From positions 930,001-962,000 of the forward strand of contig NZ_CP066019.1 in NCBI RefSeq assembly GCF_016127575.1: a stretch of DNA of 32,000 nt, read 5' to 3'. A program made the position numbers and the translations under genes. Shown here piece after piece: positions 3,879 to 21,951 of the stretch. The number at the start of each line of letters is the position of its first letter. The stretch's first letter is position 1. The notes beneath the pieces are model-generated. The model searched no databases. It worked only from the letters and a program-made list of their open reading frames with translations, and was not told the origin of the DNA. The DNA comes from Cupriavidus necator. GTDB lineage: Bacteria > Pseudomonadota > Gammaproteobacteria > Burkholderiales > Burkholderiaceae.

Positions 3879-3941
3879 AGGCGTTACGCCCGTCGGGCGC
3901 CTTTTCGCTCCGTGAAGATGAGCTCCGGCTGCTCGGCCTAG

Positions 3942-4097
3942 TCAGTGAATCCAGTCCCAGTCGATGCTCAGCTCACAGTGGCAAGCGGGACAAGCCAGCG
4001 GCTCAGGCAGCTTTCCCGAGACCATATCCTGCAGGATTTCGGAGTGGATGTTCCCGCACGCCGTGCAGGTGACGAAGAGTGGGACAGGAGGTTTCAT
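3942..4097 (-). CDS. Unannotated 51-aa zinc-ribbon-like small protein (hypothetical)
   Basis: Hand translation of the - strand gives MKPPVPLFVTCTACGNIHSEILQDMVSGKLPEPLACPACHCELSIDWDWIH, then TGA (3942-3944). Two CxxC pairs lie about 24 residues apart. Mostly G/C-ending codons. It starts 27 nt after the DapA-like stop on the same strand. No clear SD. Below the 60-aa cut-off of the ORF track. Confidence 0.35.
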   Translation of the reverse strand: MKPPVPLFVTCTACGNIHSEILQDMVSGKLPEPLACPACHCELSIDWDWIH

Positions 4098-4124
4098 CGT
4101 CGCCATCGCAAGGATGGCCAGCCT

Positions 4125-5093
4125 TCAGGCCGCCAGATGCTCATCCCGTGCAACAGTATGCGGAGGAAGCAGCGCCATGGCCTCTTCCAGCCTCTGGACC
4201 AGCGCGGGACTTGCCGGCTGCAACGGCAGGCGGGTTTCCGGGGAGATCACGCCGGAGAGCGCCAGGGCAGCTTTCACCGGTGCCGGATTCGGCTCCGCGA
4301 ACATGAGCGAGATCAACGGCGCGAGCTTCGCGAACAAGGCGCGGGCCGCGCGGAAGCGTCCTGTCTGTGCCAGATGCAGCAGGCGCACGAACAAGTCCGG
4401 ACGAATATGCGAGGACGCGGCGATCACGCCGGCGCCTCCCGCAAGCAGGTGATCCAGCAGGGCCGCATCCTCGCCGCACAGCACGGTGACATGCGGATCG
4501 TTGACAAGGACCCCGAGATTGCCGGCGCCGCACTCCTTGACCGCCGAGATCTGCGGCTGCGCGAGCAGAGATCGGATCAGCGCAGGCGACATCGCACAGC
4601 CAGTTCGCTTCGGCACGTTGTACAGCATCAGGGGGCGTTCGGTTGCGCGCGCCACTTCATTGAAATGCCACACGATACCCGCATCGGAGGGCCGCAGGTA
4701 GCAGGGCGGCGGCACCAGGTAGCCGGCAAGATCAAAGCCGTCCAGTTCGGCAACTTGCGCGCACACCGCGCGGGTATCGATCGCGCCGACGCCAGCCATC
4801 ACCGGCAGCTCGCCGTGGACGGCCTCGAGCACTGCCGCCGTGAAGACTTGCCGCTCGTGGGTGGAAAGCAGGCTTCCCTCTCCGGTCGTGCCCAAGATGA
4901 TCAGGCCGTTCACGCCTGCCTCGAGGTAACTCTCAGCCAGCCTGGCGGCGCCCGGCAGGTCCAGCGAGCCGGCACGCATCGGCGTGACCATGGGCACCCA
5001 GATGCCCCATGGCGTCTGGCGGGAAGCCGCTGCGATACCGGTGCAGGCATGCACGGCGGCGCCGGAAAAGCTCTCTTCCTCAGTGCGCCACAT
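4125..5093 (-). CDS. Dihydrodipicolinate synthase/N-acetylneuraminate lyase (DapA) family class I aldolase
   Basis: 322 aa with family motifs GTTGEG, LYNVPKRTG (Tyr and Arg retained) and Schiff-base Lys context ISAVKECG. GGGAGA SD 5 nt upstream of ATG 5093. The start overlaps the upstream ORF by 14 nt. Confidence 0.8.
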   Translation of the reverse strand: MWRTEEESFSGAAVHACTGIAAASRQTPWGIWVPMVTPMRAGSLDLPGAARLAESYLEAGVNGLIILGTTGEGSLLSTHERQVFTAAVLEAVHGELPVMAGVGAIDTRAVCAQVAELDGFDLAGYLVPPPCYLRPSDAGIVWHFNEVARATERPLMLYNVPKRTGCAMSPALIRSLLAQPQISAVKECGAGNLGVLVNDPHVTVLCGEDAALLDHLLAGGAGVIAASSHIRPDLFVRLLHLAQTGRFRAARALFAKLAPLISLMFAEPNPAPVKAALALSGVISPETRLPLQPASPALVQRLEEAMALLPPHTVARDEHLAA

Positions 5094-5478
5094 GGTTGTC
5101 TCCCAGGGCTGTCGTGACGCCGAACTCCGCCGCCGGAAAGGCCGTCATGATGGCGTGCATGGCCGCGTCGCGGTCCGCGCGTGCGATCTCCACGTGCAGC
5201 GTGGTTTCGCCGTGCCGGTAGTCCACGTTCACCACATAGACGCGGGCCAGTTCACCGAGCACCCGGTGCATGGTCTGCCGCAGGCCGAACACCTCGGTGG
5301 ATGCCACCGCAAGATGCATGCGGATCCAGGCCGGTGCGGGCTGGGAGACCGCGCGCAGCACGGGCATGGTGGCCTTGCTGCTGCGCAGGGCGGTACGTCG
5401 GGGAACGGTATCAACGGCCAGGCTTGACTGTCGCATGATTGGATGGACCGGCGCGGTAGCGGGTCGCGTGTTGGACAT
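5080..5478 (-). CDS. Hypothetical protein (about 95-132 aa, start uncertain)
   Basis: ORF whose stop (5080-5082) overlaps the DapA-like start, which suggests coupling. The C-terminal about 85 aa (IRMHLAVASTEVFGLRQTMHRVLGELARVYVVNVDYRHGETTLHVEIARADRDAAMHAIMTAF) looks like a compact alpha/beta domain. The N-terminal 40 aa are low complexity. ATG 5478 has no SD. Internal ATG 5367 has AAGG 5 nt upstream. Confidence 0.4.
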   Translation of the reverse strand: MSNTRPATAPVHPIMRQSSLAVDTVPRRTALRSSKATMPVLRAVSQPAPAWIRMHLAVASTEVFGLRQTMHRVLGELARVYVVNVDYRHGETTLHVEIARADRDAAMHAIMTAFPAAEFGVTTALGDNHVAH

Positions 5479-5578
5479 GGCTTTATGCTAGCCAGCGCCG
5501 TCTAAATTTGATGCAAGGATGTTGGGCCTTGGCGTTAAATCCGCATCAAAATCAGCGACGCTGGCAAGGCGCTCGCGC

Positions 5579-6364
5579 TCAGAACGTCTTCGTCAGCGAC
5601 GCCCAGGCCGCAGCCTTGCCGAGGTAGCGGCCCCGGTTGGCACTGGTGTAGGCCACTTCCTTGGCGTTGGTATCGACATAGGCAATCGCCAGCGCGAAGC
5701 CCTTGCCCAGGTCCTTGGTCAGGCCGATCTTCCAGTCGGTGTACGAGGCGTCGCTGTTGTGCTTGACGCCCTGGTAGCCGACGTGCGCGTTCAGTGTCAG
5801 GTCCCAGAAATTCAGCGGGACATTGGCGCTCAGGTCGACGTAGTAGCTGTTCTTGCTGTCGGCCCAGCCAAACAGGTTGGTGACCGAGTGCGAGTACTTG
5901 AGCATGACCGGGCCCCAGCCGATGCCGGCGTACAGCTCGGTGGTGTACGGGCGCGGGTTGTTGTAGCCGCCCGGGTAGTAGTACTCGAGCACGCCCAGGT
6001 CATAGTTGAACTCGGTGCCGGCGACCTTGAAGGTGTTCTTGAAGCCGCCGTAGAAATCCATCTCGACCGCGGCCGAGACCGCCGGGTTGGCATCCTCGAG
6101 CCAGCTGATGCCGGAGTTCCAGTTGCCCAGATAGAAGCCGCTTTCGTGGGCGTAGTCAAAGCCACCCTGGATGGCCGGGCGCAGGTTGGTCTGGCTGATG
6201 CCGCGATAGCGGTAGTCCGAGACCAGCGACACGTTGGCCGTGAACGTATGCGGGGACGGCGCGGCGTCTGGCTGGGATTGCGCCATGGCCGGCATGGCAG
6301 CGAGGAAGATGGAAGATGCGGAACATGCGAGCAGCGTGGCCGCGGTTTGGCGCAGGTCAGTCAT
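5579..6364 (-). CDS. TorF-family putative outer-membrane porin
   Basis: Signal peptide MTDLRQTAATLLACSASSIFLAAMPAMAQ. Family-typical N-terminal block FTANVSLVSDYRYRGISQTNLRPAIQGGFDYAHESGFYLGNW. Beta-barrel-like alternating aromatic pattern and C-terminal F. ATG 6364 was chosen over the track GTG 6415. Confidence 0.7.
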   Translation of the reverse strand: MTDLRQTAATLLACSASSIFLAAMPAMAQSQPDAAPSPHTFTANVSLVSDYRYRGISQTNLRPAIQGGFDYAHESGFYLGNWNSGISWLEDANPAVSAAVEMDFYGGFKNTFKVAGTEFNYDLGVLEYYYPGGYNNPRPYTTELYAGIGWGPVMLKYSHSVTNLFGWADSKNSYYVDLSANVPLNFWDLTLNAHVGYQGVKHNSDASYTDWKIGLTKDLGKGFALAIAYVDTNAKEVAYTSANRGRYLGKAAAWASLTKTF

Positions 6365-17949: not shown

Positions 17950-18906
17950 ATGTCCAGGTCATTCCTGCCGCGGCTGCTTGCCTCCGTTCTCGTCCTCGGC
18001 GCTTTGATTGCGTCGGGATGCGCCCACCACGCCAACAAGCCGGTACAGAAAGCCGAGATCGGATTCATCAAACTCGACTCGGACATCTCGCTCAGGACGA
18101 TGGTGGTGCACAACCCCAGTCCGAGAGGGACCGTTCTCTTCCTGCATGGATTCCCGGAGACCCTGTACGCCTGGAAGGACATTGCCCTGACTCTCGGCGA
18201 TGACTACGAAGTACACGCCATCGATTGGCCTGGCTACGGCCTCTCATCACGACCAACGGCCGACAAGTTCTCCTATGCGCCCAGAGACTATGCCCGGGTT
18301 CTGAAGGAGTACATCCGCAAGGCGGGCATCGGCACGTCAAAGCTCACGATCTACGCAACGGATATCGGAGCCTTGCCTGCCCTTCTCCTGGCTCTCGAGG
18401 AGCCGGACATTGCCAGGACGATCATCGTGGGCGACTTCGCCCCGTTCAACAGACCTCGTTACATGTACGAAAGCCTGCAGAGCCTGAAGTCGCAACCTTC
18501 GGCCGAGCTGGCTCGTGTTCAGTTGAACAAGAATCGCGAGGATGTTCTCCAGAATGCCTACAGGCGCGGCTTGGCCAGGGAAGCGCAGTTCGACATATCC
18601 GGCGAACTCAAGGACGACATGTCACGCGGATGGAGCCATGGGGAGATGACGTCAGCGGACGCCTTCTATCACTACTACTTGCACTTCACGCGGGACCAGG
18701 AGTATTTCGAGGCGAACCTGGGCCGGCTCAAGACGCCCGTGAAGGTAGTCTGGGGTGAGAAAGACATCTACATCAATAAGGACATGGGCATCGAGTTCGC
18801 CGAGAAGGCCCATGCAGCGTTCACCCTGCTTCACGGGGTTGGGCACTACCCGCACCTGCAGGACCCCCAGCAAACCGTGGCAGAGATTCGCGCTTCATTC
18901 CGGTAA
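17950..18906 (+). CDS. Alpha/beta hydrolase, epoxide hydrolase/haloalkane dehalogenase-like, probable lipoprotein
   Basis: 318 aa. Lipobox-like signal (LVLGALIASGC), oxyanion motif HGFPE, Asp nucleophile elbow IYATDIGA, C-terminal GHYPHLQDP. GAGGA SD 8 nt upstream. Uses AGG/AGA/ATA codons that are rare in the flanking genes. Confidence 0.8.
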   Translation: MSRSFLPRLLASVLVLGALIASGCAHHANKPVQKAEIGFIKLDSDISLRTMVVHNPSPRGTVLFLHGFPETLYAWKDIALTLGDDYEVHAIDWPGYGLSSRPTADKFSYAPRDYARVLKEYIRKAGIGTSKLTIYATDIGALPALLLALEEPDIARTIIVGDFAPFNRPRYMYESLQSLKSQPSAELARVQLNKNREDVLQNAYRRGLAREAQFDISGELKDDMSRGWSHGEMTSADAFYHYYLHFTRDQEYFEANLGRLKTPVKVVWGEKDIYINKDMGIEFAEKAHAAFTLLHGVGHYPHLQDPQQTVAEIRASFR

Positions 18907-18972: not shown

Positions 18973-19836
18973 ATGAGCGCCCCTCTGCCACGGACCTTTG
19001 GCCCGCTGGCGGACCCCACCGCGCACGGCGGCACTGCGAACGACGCGTTTCATCTGGTGATTCCGTCGATTCCCGGCTTCGGCTTTTCACAGAAGCCCGC
19101 AGACACTGGCTGGAATCCGGATCGCATCGCACGCACCTGGGACGTGCTGATGAAGCGGCTCGGATATGCGCGCTACGTTTCGCAGGGAGGCGACTGGGGC
19201 GCCATCATCTCCGACGCACTTGGCCGTCTGGCGCCTGAAGGACTGCTTGGCATCCACGTCAGCCGCATCGAGCGCGCCACGACGTTGCCACCAGCAATAG
19301 CCATGGCGCTGAAAAGCGGGGAGCCTGCGCCGGCAAACCTGACCACCGAAGAAAAGCAGGTGTTCGATGAGGCGAGGGATTTCCTCAACAAGGGATTCGG
19401 TTACGCGGCCATCATGCAAACGCGGCCGCAGACCATCGGCTTTGGCCTGGCCGATTCGCCAGTGGGGCTGGCAGCGTGGATCTATGACAAGCAGGCCGAC
19501 TGGGTATTCACGCGTGGCGATCCTGAGCGGTCACTGGACCGTGACGCGATCCTTGACAACATCTCGCTCTACTGGCTCACAAATACAGGCGGGTCGAGCG
19601 GACGGATCTACTGGGAAACCAGTGCCGCCCCGGCAAGGAATTCCCCCATCACCGTTCCAGTGGCAGTGACCGTCTTCCCTGGCGAGGTCTACCGGCCACC
19701 GAGGCAGTGGTTGGCACGAGCCTATCCAAACCTGATCTACTACAACCGCGTTGCCAAAGGCGGTCACTTCGCGGCTTGGGAAGAACCGGAGCTGTTCAGC
19801 GCGGAGCTACGATCTGCGTTCCGATCGTTGCGCTGA
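18973..19836 (+). pseudogene. 5'-truncated epoxide hydrolase (EH N-terminal domain and HGWP oxyanion motif missing)
   Basis: The 287-aa ORF starts at the equivalent of ...FGPLADPTAHGG. It retains the nucleophile motif GGDWGA and the C-terminal GGHFAAWEEPE. It lacks roughly 110-120 N-terminal residues found in full-length members as recalled. An in-frame TGA lies at 18946-18948, and only 66 nt separate it from the upstream gene. Confidence 0.6.
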
Positions 19837-19986: not shown

Positions 19987-20427
19987 TCACCGATGCCGAA
20001 ATGGAGCGTCACGAGCGTTCTCTGCTCTCATGTTGGCAGACAAGGTGTCAATCAAGGGACAAGAAGCCTCATTGCCATTGGCGTGGCATTGCCCAATGAG
20101 ATTCTTCAGTTCCGCTCGCATTCGTCGCAGATCCTTCATTCTTTCCTCAACAAGACTGAGCTTTTGCTCGGCCAGCGCGCGGGCTGTACTGCACGTGCTG
20201 CCATCGTTCTGTCGCAGCAGTACCCGGATTTCATCCAGGGTGAACCCGAGCGACTGGGCCTGGCGAATGAAATGAAGCCGCTGCAAGCTCTGCTGCGAAT
20301 ACTGTCGAATGGCGCCATAGGCACGCTCCGGCACCGGCAGCAGGCCGCACCGATGGTAGTAGCGTACCGTCTCCACGCCAACACCAGCCGCCTTGGCCAG
20401 CTTCCCGATTGTTAGTGTGTGCTCCAT
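19987..20427 (-). CDS. merR: MerR-family regulator of the Hg(II)-sensing MerR type
   Basis: 146 aa with N-terminal HTH (LTIGKLAKAAGVGVETVRYYHRCGLL). Cys79, Cys114 and Cys123 have spacings of 35 and 9, identical to Cys82/117/126 of Tn501 MerR. Their contexts (GSTC, QCH, SCPLI) resemble MerR. The gene is divergent from a mer-type operator. Confidence 0.8.
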   Translation of the reverse strand: MEHTLTIGKLAKAAGVGVETVRYYHRCGLLPVPERAYGAIRQYSQQSLQRLHFIRQAQSLGFTLDEIRVLLRQNDGSTCSTARALAEQKLSLVEERMKDLRRMRAELKNLIGQCHANGNEASCPLIDTLSANMRAENARDAPFRHR

Positions 20428-20430
20428 CGC

Positions 20431-20461
20431 TTGACTCCGTACCTTGGTACGGACCTACGCT
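20431..20461 (+). promoter_or_regulatory. mer-type operator/promoter (19-bp spacer, 7-4-7 dyad)
   Basis: TTGACT (20431-20436), a 19-nt spacer, then TACGCT (20456-20461). The dyad TCCGTAC-CTTG-GTACGGA (20436-20453) matches the Tn21/Tn501 operator TCCGTAC-ATGA-GTACGGA as recalled. The merR ATG (20427) lies 3 nt from the -35. Confidence 0.75.
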
Positions 20462-20575
20462 ACGCCTAAACCGCACATACGGGAAGGGCGGATTGCGTTT
20501 CGATGGGTAACGACAGGGATCGGAGCGCCAGGCACGGTGACCGTCTGCTGCCCATCGGCCGTGAGGCAAAGAGAA

Positions 20576-20845
20576 ATGATGAGCGCCGTCAAGCTGCAGT
20601 CAATCATCACCTGCCCCAAGTGCGCGCATGCAAAAGAAGAAACCATGCCCATCGATGCCTGCCAGTGGTGCTATGAGTGCGAGTGCTGCCACGCGATGCT
20701 AAGGCCCAAGGCCGGTGATTGCTGCGTCTTCTGCTCATACGGCAGCGAAAGGTGCCCGCCCATGCAGCAGCATTCCTGCTCGTGTGTTCGCCGACGCAGG
20801 TACAGCGATGCACGACGTACCCTCGATTCGGTTCCCCCCGGATGA
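20576..20845 (+). CDS. Cys-rich GDCCVxC-motif small protein (89 aa, 13 Cys)
   Basis: MMSAVKLQSIITCPKCAHAKEETMPIDACQWCYECECCHAMLRPKAGDCCVFCSYGSERCPPMQ... It contains the literal GDCCVFC motif of the family I recall being named 'GDCCVxC domain (seleno)protein'. GAGG lies 9 nt upstream of ATG 20576. An in-frame GTG at 20537 is an alternative start. No TM helix or signal peptide. Confidence 0.7.
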   Translation: MMSAVKLQSIITCPKCAHAKEETMPIDACQWCYECECCHAMLRPKAGDCCVFCSYGSERCPPMQQHSCSCVRRRRYSDARRTLDSVPPG

Positions 20846-20945
20846 TCCCGCCTCTTACCCAGCTCCGCTTGCCAGCGGAACATGTTTTTGCTCGACATTA
20901 CGCGACGCCCGTTATACGTCGCGGGGAATTCAGAGAGGGGTCATT

Positions 20946-21572: not shown

Positions 21573-21621
21573 TACTGACTCCTTAGCAGGTTAAGGCGCG
21601 CCACTCATTTGAAGGTGAAGG

Positions 21622-21700
21622 TGGCGGGCCAGACTGCGAGGGTGGAAACCAGTCTCCGGGAAAACCAGCCAGCCTTGCGGCTGCCTCGCCTGGCCCGCCA
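21622..21700. other. About 79-nt GC-rich nested inverted repeat (structured RNA or REP-like element candidate)
   Basis: The outer arms TGGCGGGCCAG (21622-21632) / CTGGCCCGCCA (21690-21700) continue with GCGAGG (21636-21641) / CCTCGC (21684-21689) after a 3-nt bulge. The inner hairpin is AGCC-TTGC-GGCT. It lies in a 379-nt non-coding gap. Confidence 0.3.
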
Positions 21701-21951
21701 TGGAACGATGCGTTCATGCGAGCACGCAGGAGTGCCGTATGGGATGCGACTCTCCTGCCCGGAGACACCTCGGGTTTCCACGCCCGGTCACCGGCGATCC
21801 GATGACGCAACCAGTATTTCCTGCCAGAGTCATGCAGGCGATAAGAGATGTCGCATTCGGAAGAGGCGCGCGAAGCTTGCGGCAACTCAGGCGAGTCGGA
21901 AATCGTTGAGTCTTGGAATGCGAGGTGGTCGCGGCATGGAACTAAGCCAAA

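Follow-up and report, generated by a model that had tools for sequence, protein, structure and literature searches.

A merR-linked GDCCVxC gene of Cupriavidus necator and the association of its Cys-rich protein family with mercury uptake genes

In a 32-kb stretch of the Cupriavidus necator genome (contig NZ_CP066019.1, positions 930,001 to 962,000, hereafter called the window), a gene for a MerR-type regulator is divergently oriented to a small gene of the GDCCVxC family, and an operator-promoter of the mer type lies between them. The locus is named here after C. necator H16, which has a protein 100% identical to the encoded Cys-rich one. The GDCCVxC family is strongly and specifically linked to genes for Hg(II) uptake, and with moderate confidence the H16 locus can be regarded as a transporter-less derivative of a mer operon that has no mercuric reductase, in which MerR would activate the production of a protein that takes up or retains Hg(II), or a different soft metal, in the cytosol. 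An earlier sequence-only reading of this DNA had described the regulator, the promoter, the leader, and the Cys-rich open reading frame (ORF), and its coordinates and sequence statements on all four are exact, but it missed that the usual arrangement of the family is a merR gene divergent from merT-merP-GDCCVxC, and not from GDCCVxC alone.

Regulator, operator, and Cys-rich protein of the H16 locus

In a search with NCBIfam profiles, the regulator (coordinates in Table 1) reaches 150.4 bits with TIGR02051, the model of Hg(II)-responsive MerR proteins that has a curated cutoff of 150.85 bits, and the margin over the other sensor models is more than 50 bits, with ZntR (97 bits), CueR (94 bits), and CadR/PbrR (91 bits) as runners-up. 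For calibration, MerR proteins encoded next to merT-merP in other genomes score 141-146 bits with TIGR02051, likewise under the cutoff, the MerR of plasmid pRA2 scores 178.8 bits, and products of MerR-family genes that are linked to a cation diffusion facilitator (CDF) transporter or merF have ambiguous CueR/MerR scores. The identity to Tn21-type MerR is 52-54%. Cys79, Cys114, and Cys123 align with C82, C117, and C126 of Tn501 MerR, which confirms the spacings of 35 and 9 residues that had been noticed before, and the metal loop CHANGNEASCPLI has the C114-x8-C123-P-L-I pattern as in Hg MerRs. The three cysteines had been taken as a mark of Hg responsiveness, and they are indeed present and aligned, but non-Hg MerR paralogues in the same alignment also carry cysteines in these columns, and the pattern is necessary, not sufficient, and by itself weak evidence. 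The assignment of the window MerR to the Hg type thus rests on the margin of the hidden Markov model (HMM) and on the operator. In a neighbour-joining tree (no bootstrap) that includes every MerR-family gene of the fetched loci, the clade of the Cupriavidus MerRs, which comprises the window and the loci of Cupriavidus sp. UYPR2.512 (L001), C. campinensis MJ1 (L082), and Cupriavidus sp. WKF15 (L083), nests among MerRs linked to merTP and apart from second-copy paralogues. By profile, tree, and operator, the regulator groups with Hg-type MerRs, in agreement with the sequence-only reading. The ratio of nonsynonymous to synonymous substitution rates (dN/dS) of merR is 0.21-0.27 in comparison to UYPR2.512 and WKF15, which indicates purifying selection. 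By analogy with Tn21 and Tn501, this MerR would activate the promoter in dependence on Hg(II).

The promoter consists of a -35 hexamer TTGACT (20431-20436), a spacer of 19 nucleotides (nt), and a -10 hexamer TACGCT (20456-20461), and the spacer region contains the dyad TCCGTACC/GGTACGGA with perfect arms of 8 nt (20436-20443 and 20446-20453). The ATG of merR is 3 nt away from the -35 hexamer, and the Shine-Dalgarno sequence of merR, GGAG, falls within the dyad on the opposite strand. The motif TTGACTCCGTAC-N4-GTACGGA matches once in the window and not at all in 100 shuffles. It is also present in pRA2, which carries transposon Tn5563, and in about 28 loci in which merR is associated with merTP-GDCCVxC, and at the equivalent place of a Tn21-type operon on a Klebsiella pneumoniae plasmid (L081, merR divergent from merTPCADE) the sequence reads cgcTTGACTCCGTACATAACTACGGAAGTAAGCT, showing that the likeness to merOP stated in the sequence-only reading is correct. 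The window operator is identical in sequence to the mer consensus and therewith a predicted MerR site. The leader that separates the -10 hexamer from the first ATG has no match in Rfam, and its fold stability cannot be distinguished from that of shuffles (z-score -0.61), which is why a structured RNA element was rejected as a candidate. The leader is about 85% conserved in UYPR2.512 and absent in C. campinensis.

The Cys-rich protein, for which the NCBI annotation uses the second of the two start codons, matches the profile NF041374 ('GDCCVxC domain-containing (seleno)protein') with 99.2 bits at a cutoff of 40 and over model positions 1-57 of 58, and no Pfam family, including metallothionein, HMA (heavy-metal-associated), and TRASH/YHS, was detected in it at E<=0.01. 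It is invariant over 15 C. necator contigs, soluble and hydrophilic with a maximal Kyte-Doolittle score of 0.56 over 19 residues, and neither a transmembrane segment nor a signal peptide was found. In comparison to UYPR2.512 and WKF15, the dN/dS of the gene is 0.13-0.22, again indicating purifying selection, and as this is close to merR, the gene can be considered to be real. The conserved domain comprises residues ~6-69, and the tail past residue ~72 is not conserved. All 13 cysteines that had been counted before exist, but in alignments of 25 and of 116 homologues only nine of them are invariant in the family (C12, C15, C28, C34, C37, C48, C49, C52, and C59, which include those of the GDCCVxC and CPP motifs), and C31 and C36 are extra cysteines specific to the lineage. 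Members of the family usually end with a short variable linker and a vicinal CC just before the stop codon (about 85-90%). In the window protein, this terminal CC is replaced by CSC (...SCSC), followed by 17 unconserved residues, and in UYPR2.512, the closest relative, there is a stop codon after SCSCVR where the window protein reads on.

A model generated by AlphaFold2 (AF2) from the 116-sequence alignment has a mean predicted local distance difference test score (pLDDT) of 76.6, with values above 80 over residues 10-60, and it contains two beta-hairpins of the zinc-ribbon type and two short helices. Foldseek comparison of this model with the PDB gave nothing below E=1, and the best weak matches (E>1) are the zinc ribbons of LysW, of an MCM zinc finger, and of RNA polymerase I subunit A12. 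A sequence search of the PDB likewise gave nothing below E=0.1 and only weak resemblance to zinc ribbons and rubredoxin.

The GDCCVxC family and its genomic context

The family is large: a profile search of 1.84 billion representatives detected 3,098 proteins with E<=1e-3, of which 1,983 have E<=1e-10, the ~3,100 representatives being counted at the level of 50% identity clusters, and when one genome per species was scanned, at least 598 species had a homologue. For the genomic context, 80 homologue loci were fetched, in which mer genes were counted by tblastn with Tn21 proteins. In 37 of these 80 loci, merT and merP are encoded immediately upstream on the same strand, with a gap of about 10-15 nt between merP and the GDCCVxC gene. 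MerR is encoded nearby in about 29 and the same operator motif is found in about 28 of the 80 loci, with merR usually divergent upstream of merT. The enrichment of homologues near merR genes, whose lack the sequence-only reading had named as a refutation, is thus found and is massive for mer contexts as a whole. The gene at the 3' side of merTP-GDCCVxC is usually on the opposite strand and heterogeneous (Tn3 transposases, components of RND or OEP type, glutathione S-transferases, FTR1), and a bulk Pfam scan of the genes downstream of the merTP loci detected three Tn3 transposases and no second dominant partner. As the downstream gene is usually of opposite orientation and of variable kind, GDCCVxC is usually the last gene of a compact unit of merR and the divergent merT-merP-GDCCVxC.

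A canonical MerA is encoded in none of the 37 merTP-linked loci, 26 of which include at least 5 kb of downstream sequence. 'MerA-like' neighbours at L002, L004, L068, and L075 were rejected as MerA, as these flavoprotein disulfide reductases have neither an NmerA domain nor a C-terminal CC. Other Hg(II) uptake genes can take the place upstream of the GDCCVxC gene, namely merC in L024 and merF on a Sulfitobacter plasmid (L103). In L077, a gene for a MerT-like protein of 123 amino acids (aa) lies between merR and the GDCCVxC gene, and L052 is a degraded mer operon with an operator and a truncated merP.

The 43 loci without adjacent merT-merP have no common neighbour in bulk Pfam scans, only scattered metal-related genes such as those for ArsP, a multicopper oxidase, a CsoR-type repressor, and DsbA. 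In Cupriavidus sp. IDO (L084, 3182-6228), an arsR-glyoxalase-arsC(LMWP)-acr3-DUF190 cluster ends with the GDCCVxC gene. Such neighbours suggest that the module could handle another soft metal or metalloid, for example As(III), Cd(II), Au(I/III), or Cu(I), with the H16 MerR being a diverged paralogue. Besides the association with the ars cluster and with ArsP, multicopper oxidase, and CsoR genes, to which CusB and a P-type ATPase can be added from the surroundings of a fusion gene described below, also the score of MerR slightly below the TIGR02051 cutoff and the absence of a Hg transporter or reductase from the H16 window are in line with this. However, both the C-x8-C-P-L-I loop and the operator are of the Hg MerR type, the HMM margin exceeds 50 bits, and merT-merP is the dominant context of the family, so that this explanation is of low probability.

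Plasmids are a frequent location of the family, as tblastn against PLSDB found a homologue on 352 plasmids, many of which are small and IncP-6-like with hosts in Pseudomonas, Klebsiella, Aeromonas, Enterobacter, and Citrobacter. The best-known example is pRA2 of Pseudomonas alcaligenes (L102, NC_005909.1), where positions 3882-5213 are annotated in RefSeq as merR and, divergent to it, a MerT-family gene, merP, and GDCCVxC, which together belong to Tn5563; after the GDCCVxC gene there follow a convergent Tn3-family transposase, a PIN toxin, and a recombinase. The GDCCVxC protein of Tn5563 is 64.6% identical to the window protein. In the literature, the genes of Tn5563 are listed as tnpR, orf2, pilT, tnpA, merP, merT, and merR, and the mer locus is termed 'defective' or 'incomplete', with no gene named between merP and tnpA (PMC4785139; PMC4133298). 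As these lists name none at this position, a fourth gene of the Tn5563 mer locus has been overlooked.

Domain fusions also relate the family to metal transport. The proteins P0138 and P0264 consist of two-helix MerT-like modules, with SCCWLP and SSCCVVP in helix 1, respectively, and a C-terminal GDCCVxC domain, and the known topology of MerT implies that the GDCCVxC domain of these fusions is cytoplasmic, at the place of the cytoplasmic Cys pair of MerT. The gene of P0264 (L101) is divergent from a merR-family gene, and the gene of P0138 (L100) is neighboured by genes for CusB, Fur, and a P-type ATPase. In P0122, an HMA domain is fused to GDCCVxC. The protein P0231 (793 aa) is a PAS-PAS-GGDEF diguanylate cyclase with a C-terminal GDCCVxC domain at residues 719-786, a composition that suggests a metal or redox input to cyclic di-GMP signalling. 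As this is a typical position of a sensor domain, and as zinc ribbons and rubredoxin knuckles make up all of the best, albeit weak, matches of the window protein, it can be asked whether GDCCVxC proteins are zinc-ribbon regulators or sensors, i.e. MerD-like co-regulators, modulators of MerR, or metal- or redox-sensing domains. With the MerT-like and HMA fusions pointing to metal trafficking, with no DNA-binding features found in the GDCCVxC protein, and with all structural matches at E>1, such a function is very unlikely.

In several lineages the family contains selenocysteine (Sec). A metagenome search for GD-C-TGA-V-[FY]-C-S-[YF]-G matched 15 contigs, at least six of which are full-length (L085, L086, L087, L089, L090, and L095, with L086 and L090 being the same sequence), and in these forms the reading frame is open and conserved through the TGA up to the terminal CC. 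The remaining matches (L088, L091, L093, L097, and duplicates) look frameshifted or truncated upstream. As the in-frame TGA is at the second Cys codon of GDCC and reading is conserved through it, Sec replaces this Cys, resulting in a CU dipeptide (GDCUVxC). In L086 and L095, hairpins about 18 nt past the UGA would fit bacterial selenocysteine insertion sequence (SECIS) elements, and the Sec form of L085 sits after merR and a divergent merT-merP. The CU dipeptide is rare and tied to proteins that handle heavy metals, such as MerT-family selenoproteins and HgcA, and the preprint that described this does not mention the GDCCVxC family (Haft and Gwadz, bioRxiv 10.1101/2022.07.06.499078).

At three loci, the GDCCVxC gene is directly adjoined by a gene for a pyridine-nucleotide disulfide oxidoreductase of about 450 aa (L004, 5408-6706; L075, 6280-7626; L068, 4616-5971). 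These flavoproteins have the CxxxxC site GGTCALRGCDPKK and lack NmerA and the C-terminal CC, and since a CC tail is found at the C-terminus of the GDCCVxC proteins, the two might form a split mercuric reductase. GDCCVxC could then be a redox-active partner, in which the CC or CU dyad cycles between thiol and disulfide, or which supplies the CC tail of MerA in trans to the flavoprotein. Sec is typical of catalytic redox sites, and its presence at the second Cys of GDCC in several lineages, the adjoining oxidoreductase genes, and the flexible CC tail of nearly all family members fit to such a role. Nevertheless, it is unlikely: the oxidoreductase neighbours occur in only 3 of the 80 loci, none lies within 5-6 kb of the majority of merTP-GDCCVxC operons, there is none in the H16 window, and the H16 protein has no CC tail.

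Cupriavidus variants and the surroundings of the H16 locus

The tblastn search of the window with MerT, MerP, MerC, MerA, MerD, and MerE of Tn21 gave no credible match within the 32 kb and none with E<0.02 for MerT, MerP, MerC, MerA, or MerE, the best match of MerA having E=0.023 over 48 aa, and for the uptake genes merT, merP, merC, merF, and merE there was no match with E<0.03. The absence of merT, merP, and merA, already noticed in the sequence-only reading, is thereby corroborated, and the promoter leads directly to the GDCCVxC gene without intervening merT-merP. The features of the locus are listed in Table 1.

Table 1. Features of the H16 locus, with positions in the window.
Feature	Position	Strand	Basis or remark
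merR-type regulator gene, 146 aa	19987..20427	-	ORF call and TIGR02051 profile
mer-type operator-promoter	20431..20461	+	sequence, inverted-repeat search, motif scan
114-nt leader, -10 hexamer to first ATG	20462..20575	+	no recognisable RNA element
GDCCVxC-family gene	20576..20845	+	NF041374 profile; 89 aa from ATG 20576, 88 aa from ATG 20579
weak hairpin and T-run between GDCCVxC and DUF2188 genes	20864..20879	+	6-bp stem
DUF2188 gene, 74 aa	20946..21170	+	PF09954, 54.4 bits

A DUF2188 gene follows downstream of the GDCCVxC gene in the window, in UYPR2.512, and in WKF15, and its dN/dS is 0.24-0.33, which indicates purifying selection as for the other two genes. The gene is a conserved companion of this locus in Cupriavidus and may be the second one under the control of MerR. 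The idea that the unit has one single effector, as put forward in the sequence-only reading, may therefore have to be given up, because this conserved gene follows. The weak hairpin between the two genes may be a partial terminator; hairpins of this kind are no more frequent than in shuffles, and it is not conserved in UYPR2.512.

The layout of UYPR2.512 is as in H16. In WKF15 (4740-5868), an insertion sequence (IS) of the IS630 family (DDE_3) is positioned exactly at the -10 hexamer. C. campinensis MJ1 has a merR that is 78% identical and an intact operator but lacks the GDCCVxC gene, and its promoter is followed directly by the DUF2188 gene (4620-4832 on the minus strand). In Cupriavidus sp. 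IDO, the DUF2188 gene is about 400 bp away from the ars-associated GDCCVxC gene, on the opposite strand. The nearest relatives outside Cupriavidus (L002-L004, 69-75% identical) are ordinary merTP-linked genes. The transporter-less layout, with GDCCVxC directly divergent from merR, is limited to few Cupriavidus genomes and is probably derived.

With these variants at hand it can be considered that the H16 module is a mere remnant of an operon of merR and merTP-GDCCVxC that has no present physiological role. This would fit to the absence of merT and merP from the window, to the altered C-terminal CC with an unconserved tail added by read-through, to the loss of the GDCCVxC gene in C. campinensis, to the promoter of WKF15 that is broken by an IS element, and to the position of the module in a stretch of low GC content. 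Yet the dN/dS values of 0.13-0.27 for GDCCVxC and merR, the perfect operator dyad, and the identity of the protein on 15 C. necator contigs argue against this and make a remnant without a role extremely improbable.

The low-GC stretch at 17-22 kb has a GC content of 0.57-0.63 as compared to 0.64-0.71 in the rest of the window. Within it, some 450 nt past the DUF2188 gene, lies a C4 antisense RNA (21617-21705, minus strand; Rfam RF01695, 56.6 bits at a gathering score of 45), a hint that this segment is mobile or of phage origin. On the other side of the module, a complete alpha/beta hydrolase gene (17950-18906) precedes an ORF of 287 aa (18973-19836, plus strand) that has a partial match to the alpha/beta-hydrolase fold (profile positions 26-136 of 245) and may encode a divergent or truncated alpha/beta hydrolase paralogue.

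A possible cytosolic acceptor of Hg(II) or another soft metal

The favoured reading of the H16 locus as a transporter-less derivative of a reductase-less mer operon can be formulated as a sequence of steps. A MerR dimer would bind the dyad within the promoter with the 19-bp spacer, and Hg(II) or another very thiophilic metal bound at the three-Cys site would cause activation by DNA distortion, in analogy to Tn21 and Tn501. The soluble GDCCVxC protein would be made from the resulting transcript, as probably would the DUF2188 protein. The GDCCVxC protein would have a zinc-ribbon-like core formed by CPxC and CxxC and a second cluster formed by C28, GDCC-V-x-C, and CPP, normally complemented by the flexible C-terminal CC. 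In the usual setting, it may take over Hg(II) at the cytoplasmic face of importers of the MerT or MerF type and thereby spare cellular thiols, a role that can be likened to that of the NmerA domain or of a metallothionein. As there is no dedicated importer at the H16 locus, the protein may there buffer metal that enters by other routes. From the regulator and the operator we infer that the locus is inducible by thiophilic metals, as the sequence-only reading had proposed, and from the family context that the protein binds Hg(II) or a similarly soft metal and serves as its acceptor or sink, be it for sequestration or as a chaperone.

Several points weigh against this reading. On the side of the regulator, the MerR score is 0.45 bits short of the TIGR02051 cutoff. 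The H16 copy of the protein is without the canonical C-terminal CC and has the CSC and the unconserved tail instead, and since no significant analogue came up in the comparison of structures, its metal sites are deduced from the sequence pattern only. In Cupriavidus, the IS element of WKF15 splits merR and the operator from the GDCCVxC and DUF2188 genes, and C. campinensis has lost the GDCCVxC gene and kept merR, the operator, and DUF2188. As to the family, most of the 43 non-merTP loci show no mer gene, and because these make up 43 of 80 and include neighbours like ars genes, ArsP, an oxidase, and CsoR, the family may not be Hg-specific. Finally, a search of the available literature found no function described for any family member and no mention of the family name, in accordance with the sequence-only reading, which likewise knew of no established function.

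A wider role of the family as a MerA-independent mercury route can also be proposed, but only tentatively. Import by MerT/MerP, or by MerF or MerC, would then be followed by a dedicated cytosolic Cys- or Sec-containing protein of high affinity that sequesters the metal, or reduces it together with a non-canonical flavoprotein. The 'defective' loci with merR, merT, and merP would in that case be complete four-gene systems, and merR-GDCCVxC-DUF2188 of H16 would be the minimal form of a sensor plus sink.

A comparison with known systems helps to place the H16 unit. Like in the mer operons of Tn21 and Tn501, which consist of merR, the operator-promoter, and merTP(C)ADE, a divergent merR abuts the -35 hexamer, and the operator motif, the 19-bp spacer, and the Hg ligands are the same, but the window has no merT, merP, merA, merD, or merE, and it has instead the genes of the soluble Cys-rich protein and of DUF2188 as well as a leader of ~114 nt. 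With the Tn5563-type loci of pRA2 and of IncP-6 KPC plasmids it shares the effector family, the type of operator, and the lack of merA, whereas the H16 locus is without merT-merP, chromosomal, and outside any Tn3-family transposon. NmerA and MerP resemble GDCCVxC as small soluble thiol modules that are proposed to act on the MerT pathway of Hg(II), a shared pathway that is supported by the HMA and MerT-like fusions. GDCCVxC is related to them neither in sequence nor in fold, as it has no HMA Pfam match and no GMTCxxC motif and its predicted fold is zinc-ribbon-like and not ferredoxin-like. Archaeal MerH, encoded in the mer operon of Sulfolobus, is a TRASH-domain metallochaperone, a small soluble Cys protein that is thought to traffic Hg(II). 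It belongs to another domain family, as there is no TRASH/YHS Pfam match in GDCCVxC, and the MerH operon includes merA.

The combination of import with a cytosolic thiol-rich sink has also been used in engineering, as Chen and Wilson in 1997 reportedly constructed strains with MerT-MerP and metallothionein for the bioaccumulation of Hg. GDCCVxC proteins resemble SmtA/BmtA and these strains in that logic and in their similar size and Cys content, but they have no sequence similarity to metallothionein families. A small Cys-rich protein under the control of a MerR-family metal sensor has also been described in Pseudomonas aeruginosa, where CadR drives the previously unannotated zinc-ribbon protein Zrd that is proposed to be metallothionein-like (PMC12301328). 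Compared by description, this pair resembles the H16 unit in its composition of sensor and Cys-rich protein and differs from it in that the sensor responds to Cd/Zn and that Zrd has two CXXC-N10-CXXC motifs. The H16 unit is not new in kind: an uncharacterised component of the classic mer system, which has mostly been overlooked, is found here in an arrangement of unusual simplicity.

To our knowledge, the list of genes of the textbook mer operon (merR, T, P, C, F, E, A, B, D, and G) is regarded as essentially complete, and to this list a very Cys-rich, sometimes Sec-containing family can now be added that recurs regularly in mer operons without a reductase. With its sensor, operator, and effector and without a transporter, the H16 locus makes the question of its function directly testable in a tractable host. 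If GDCCVxC proteins are cytosolic Hg(II) acceptors, this would explain why loci with only merR, merT, and merP persist and spread, the label 'defective' would have to be revised for the Tn5563-type loci on clinical plasmids such as the IncP-6 carbapenemase plasmids, and the family would be a source of natural components for the bioaccumulation and the biosensing of mercury.

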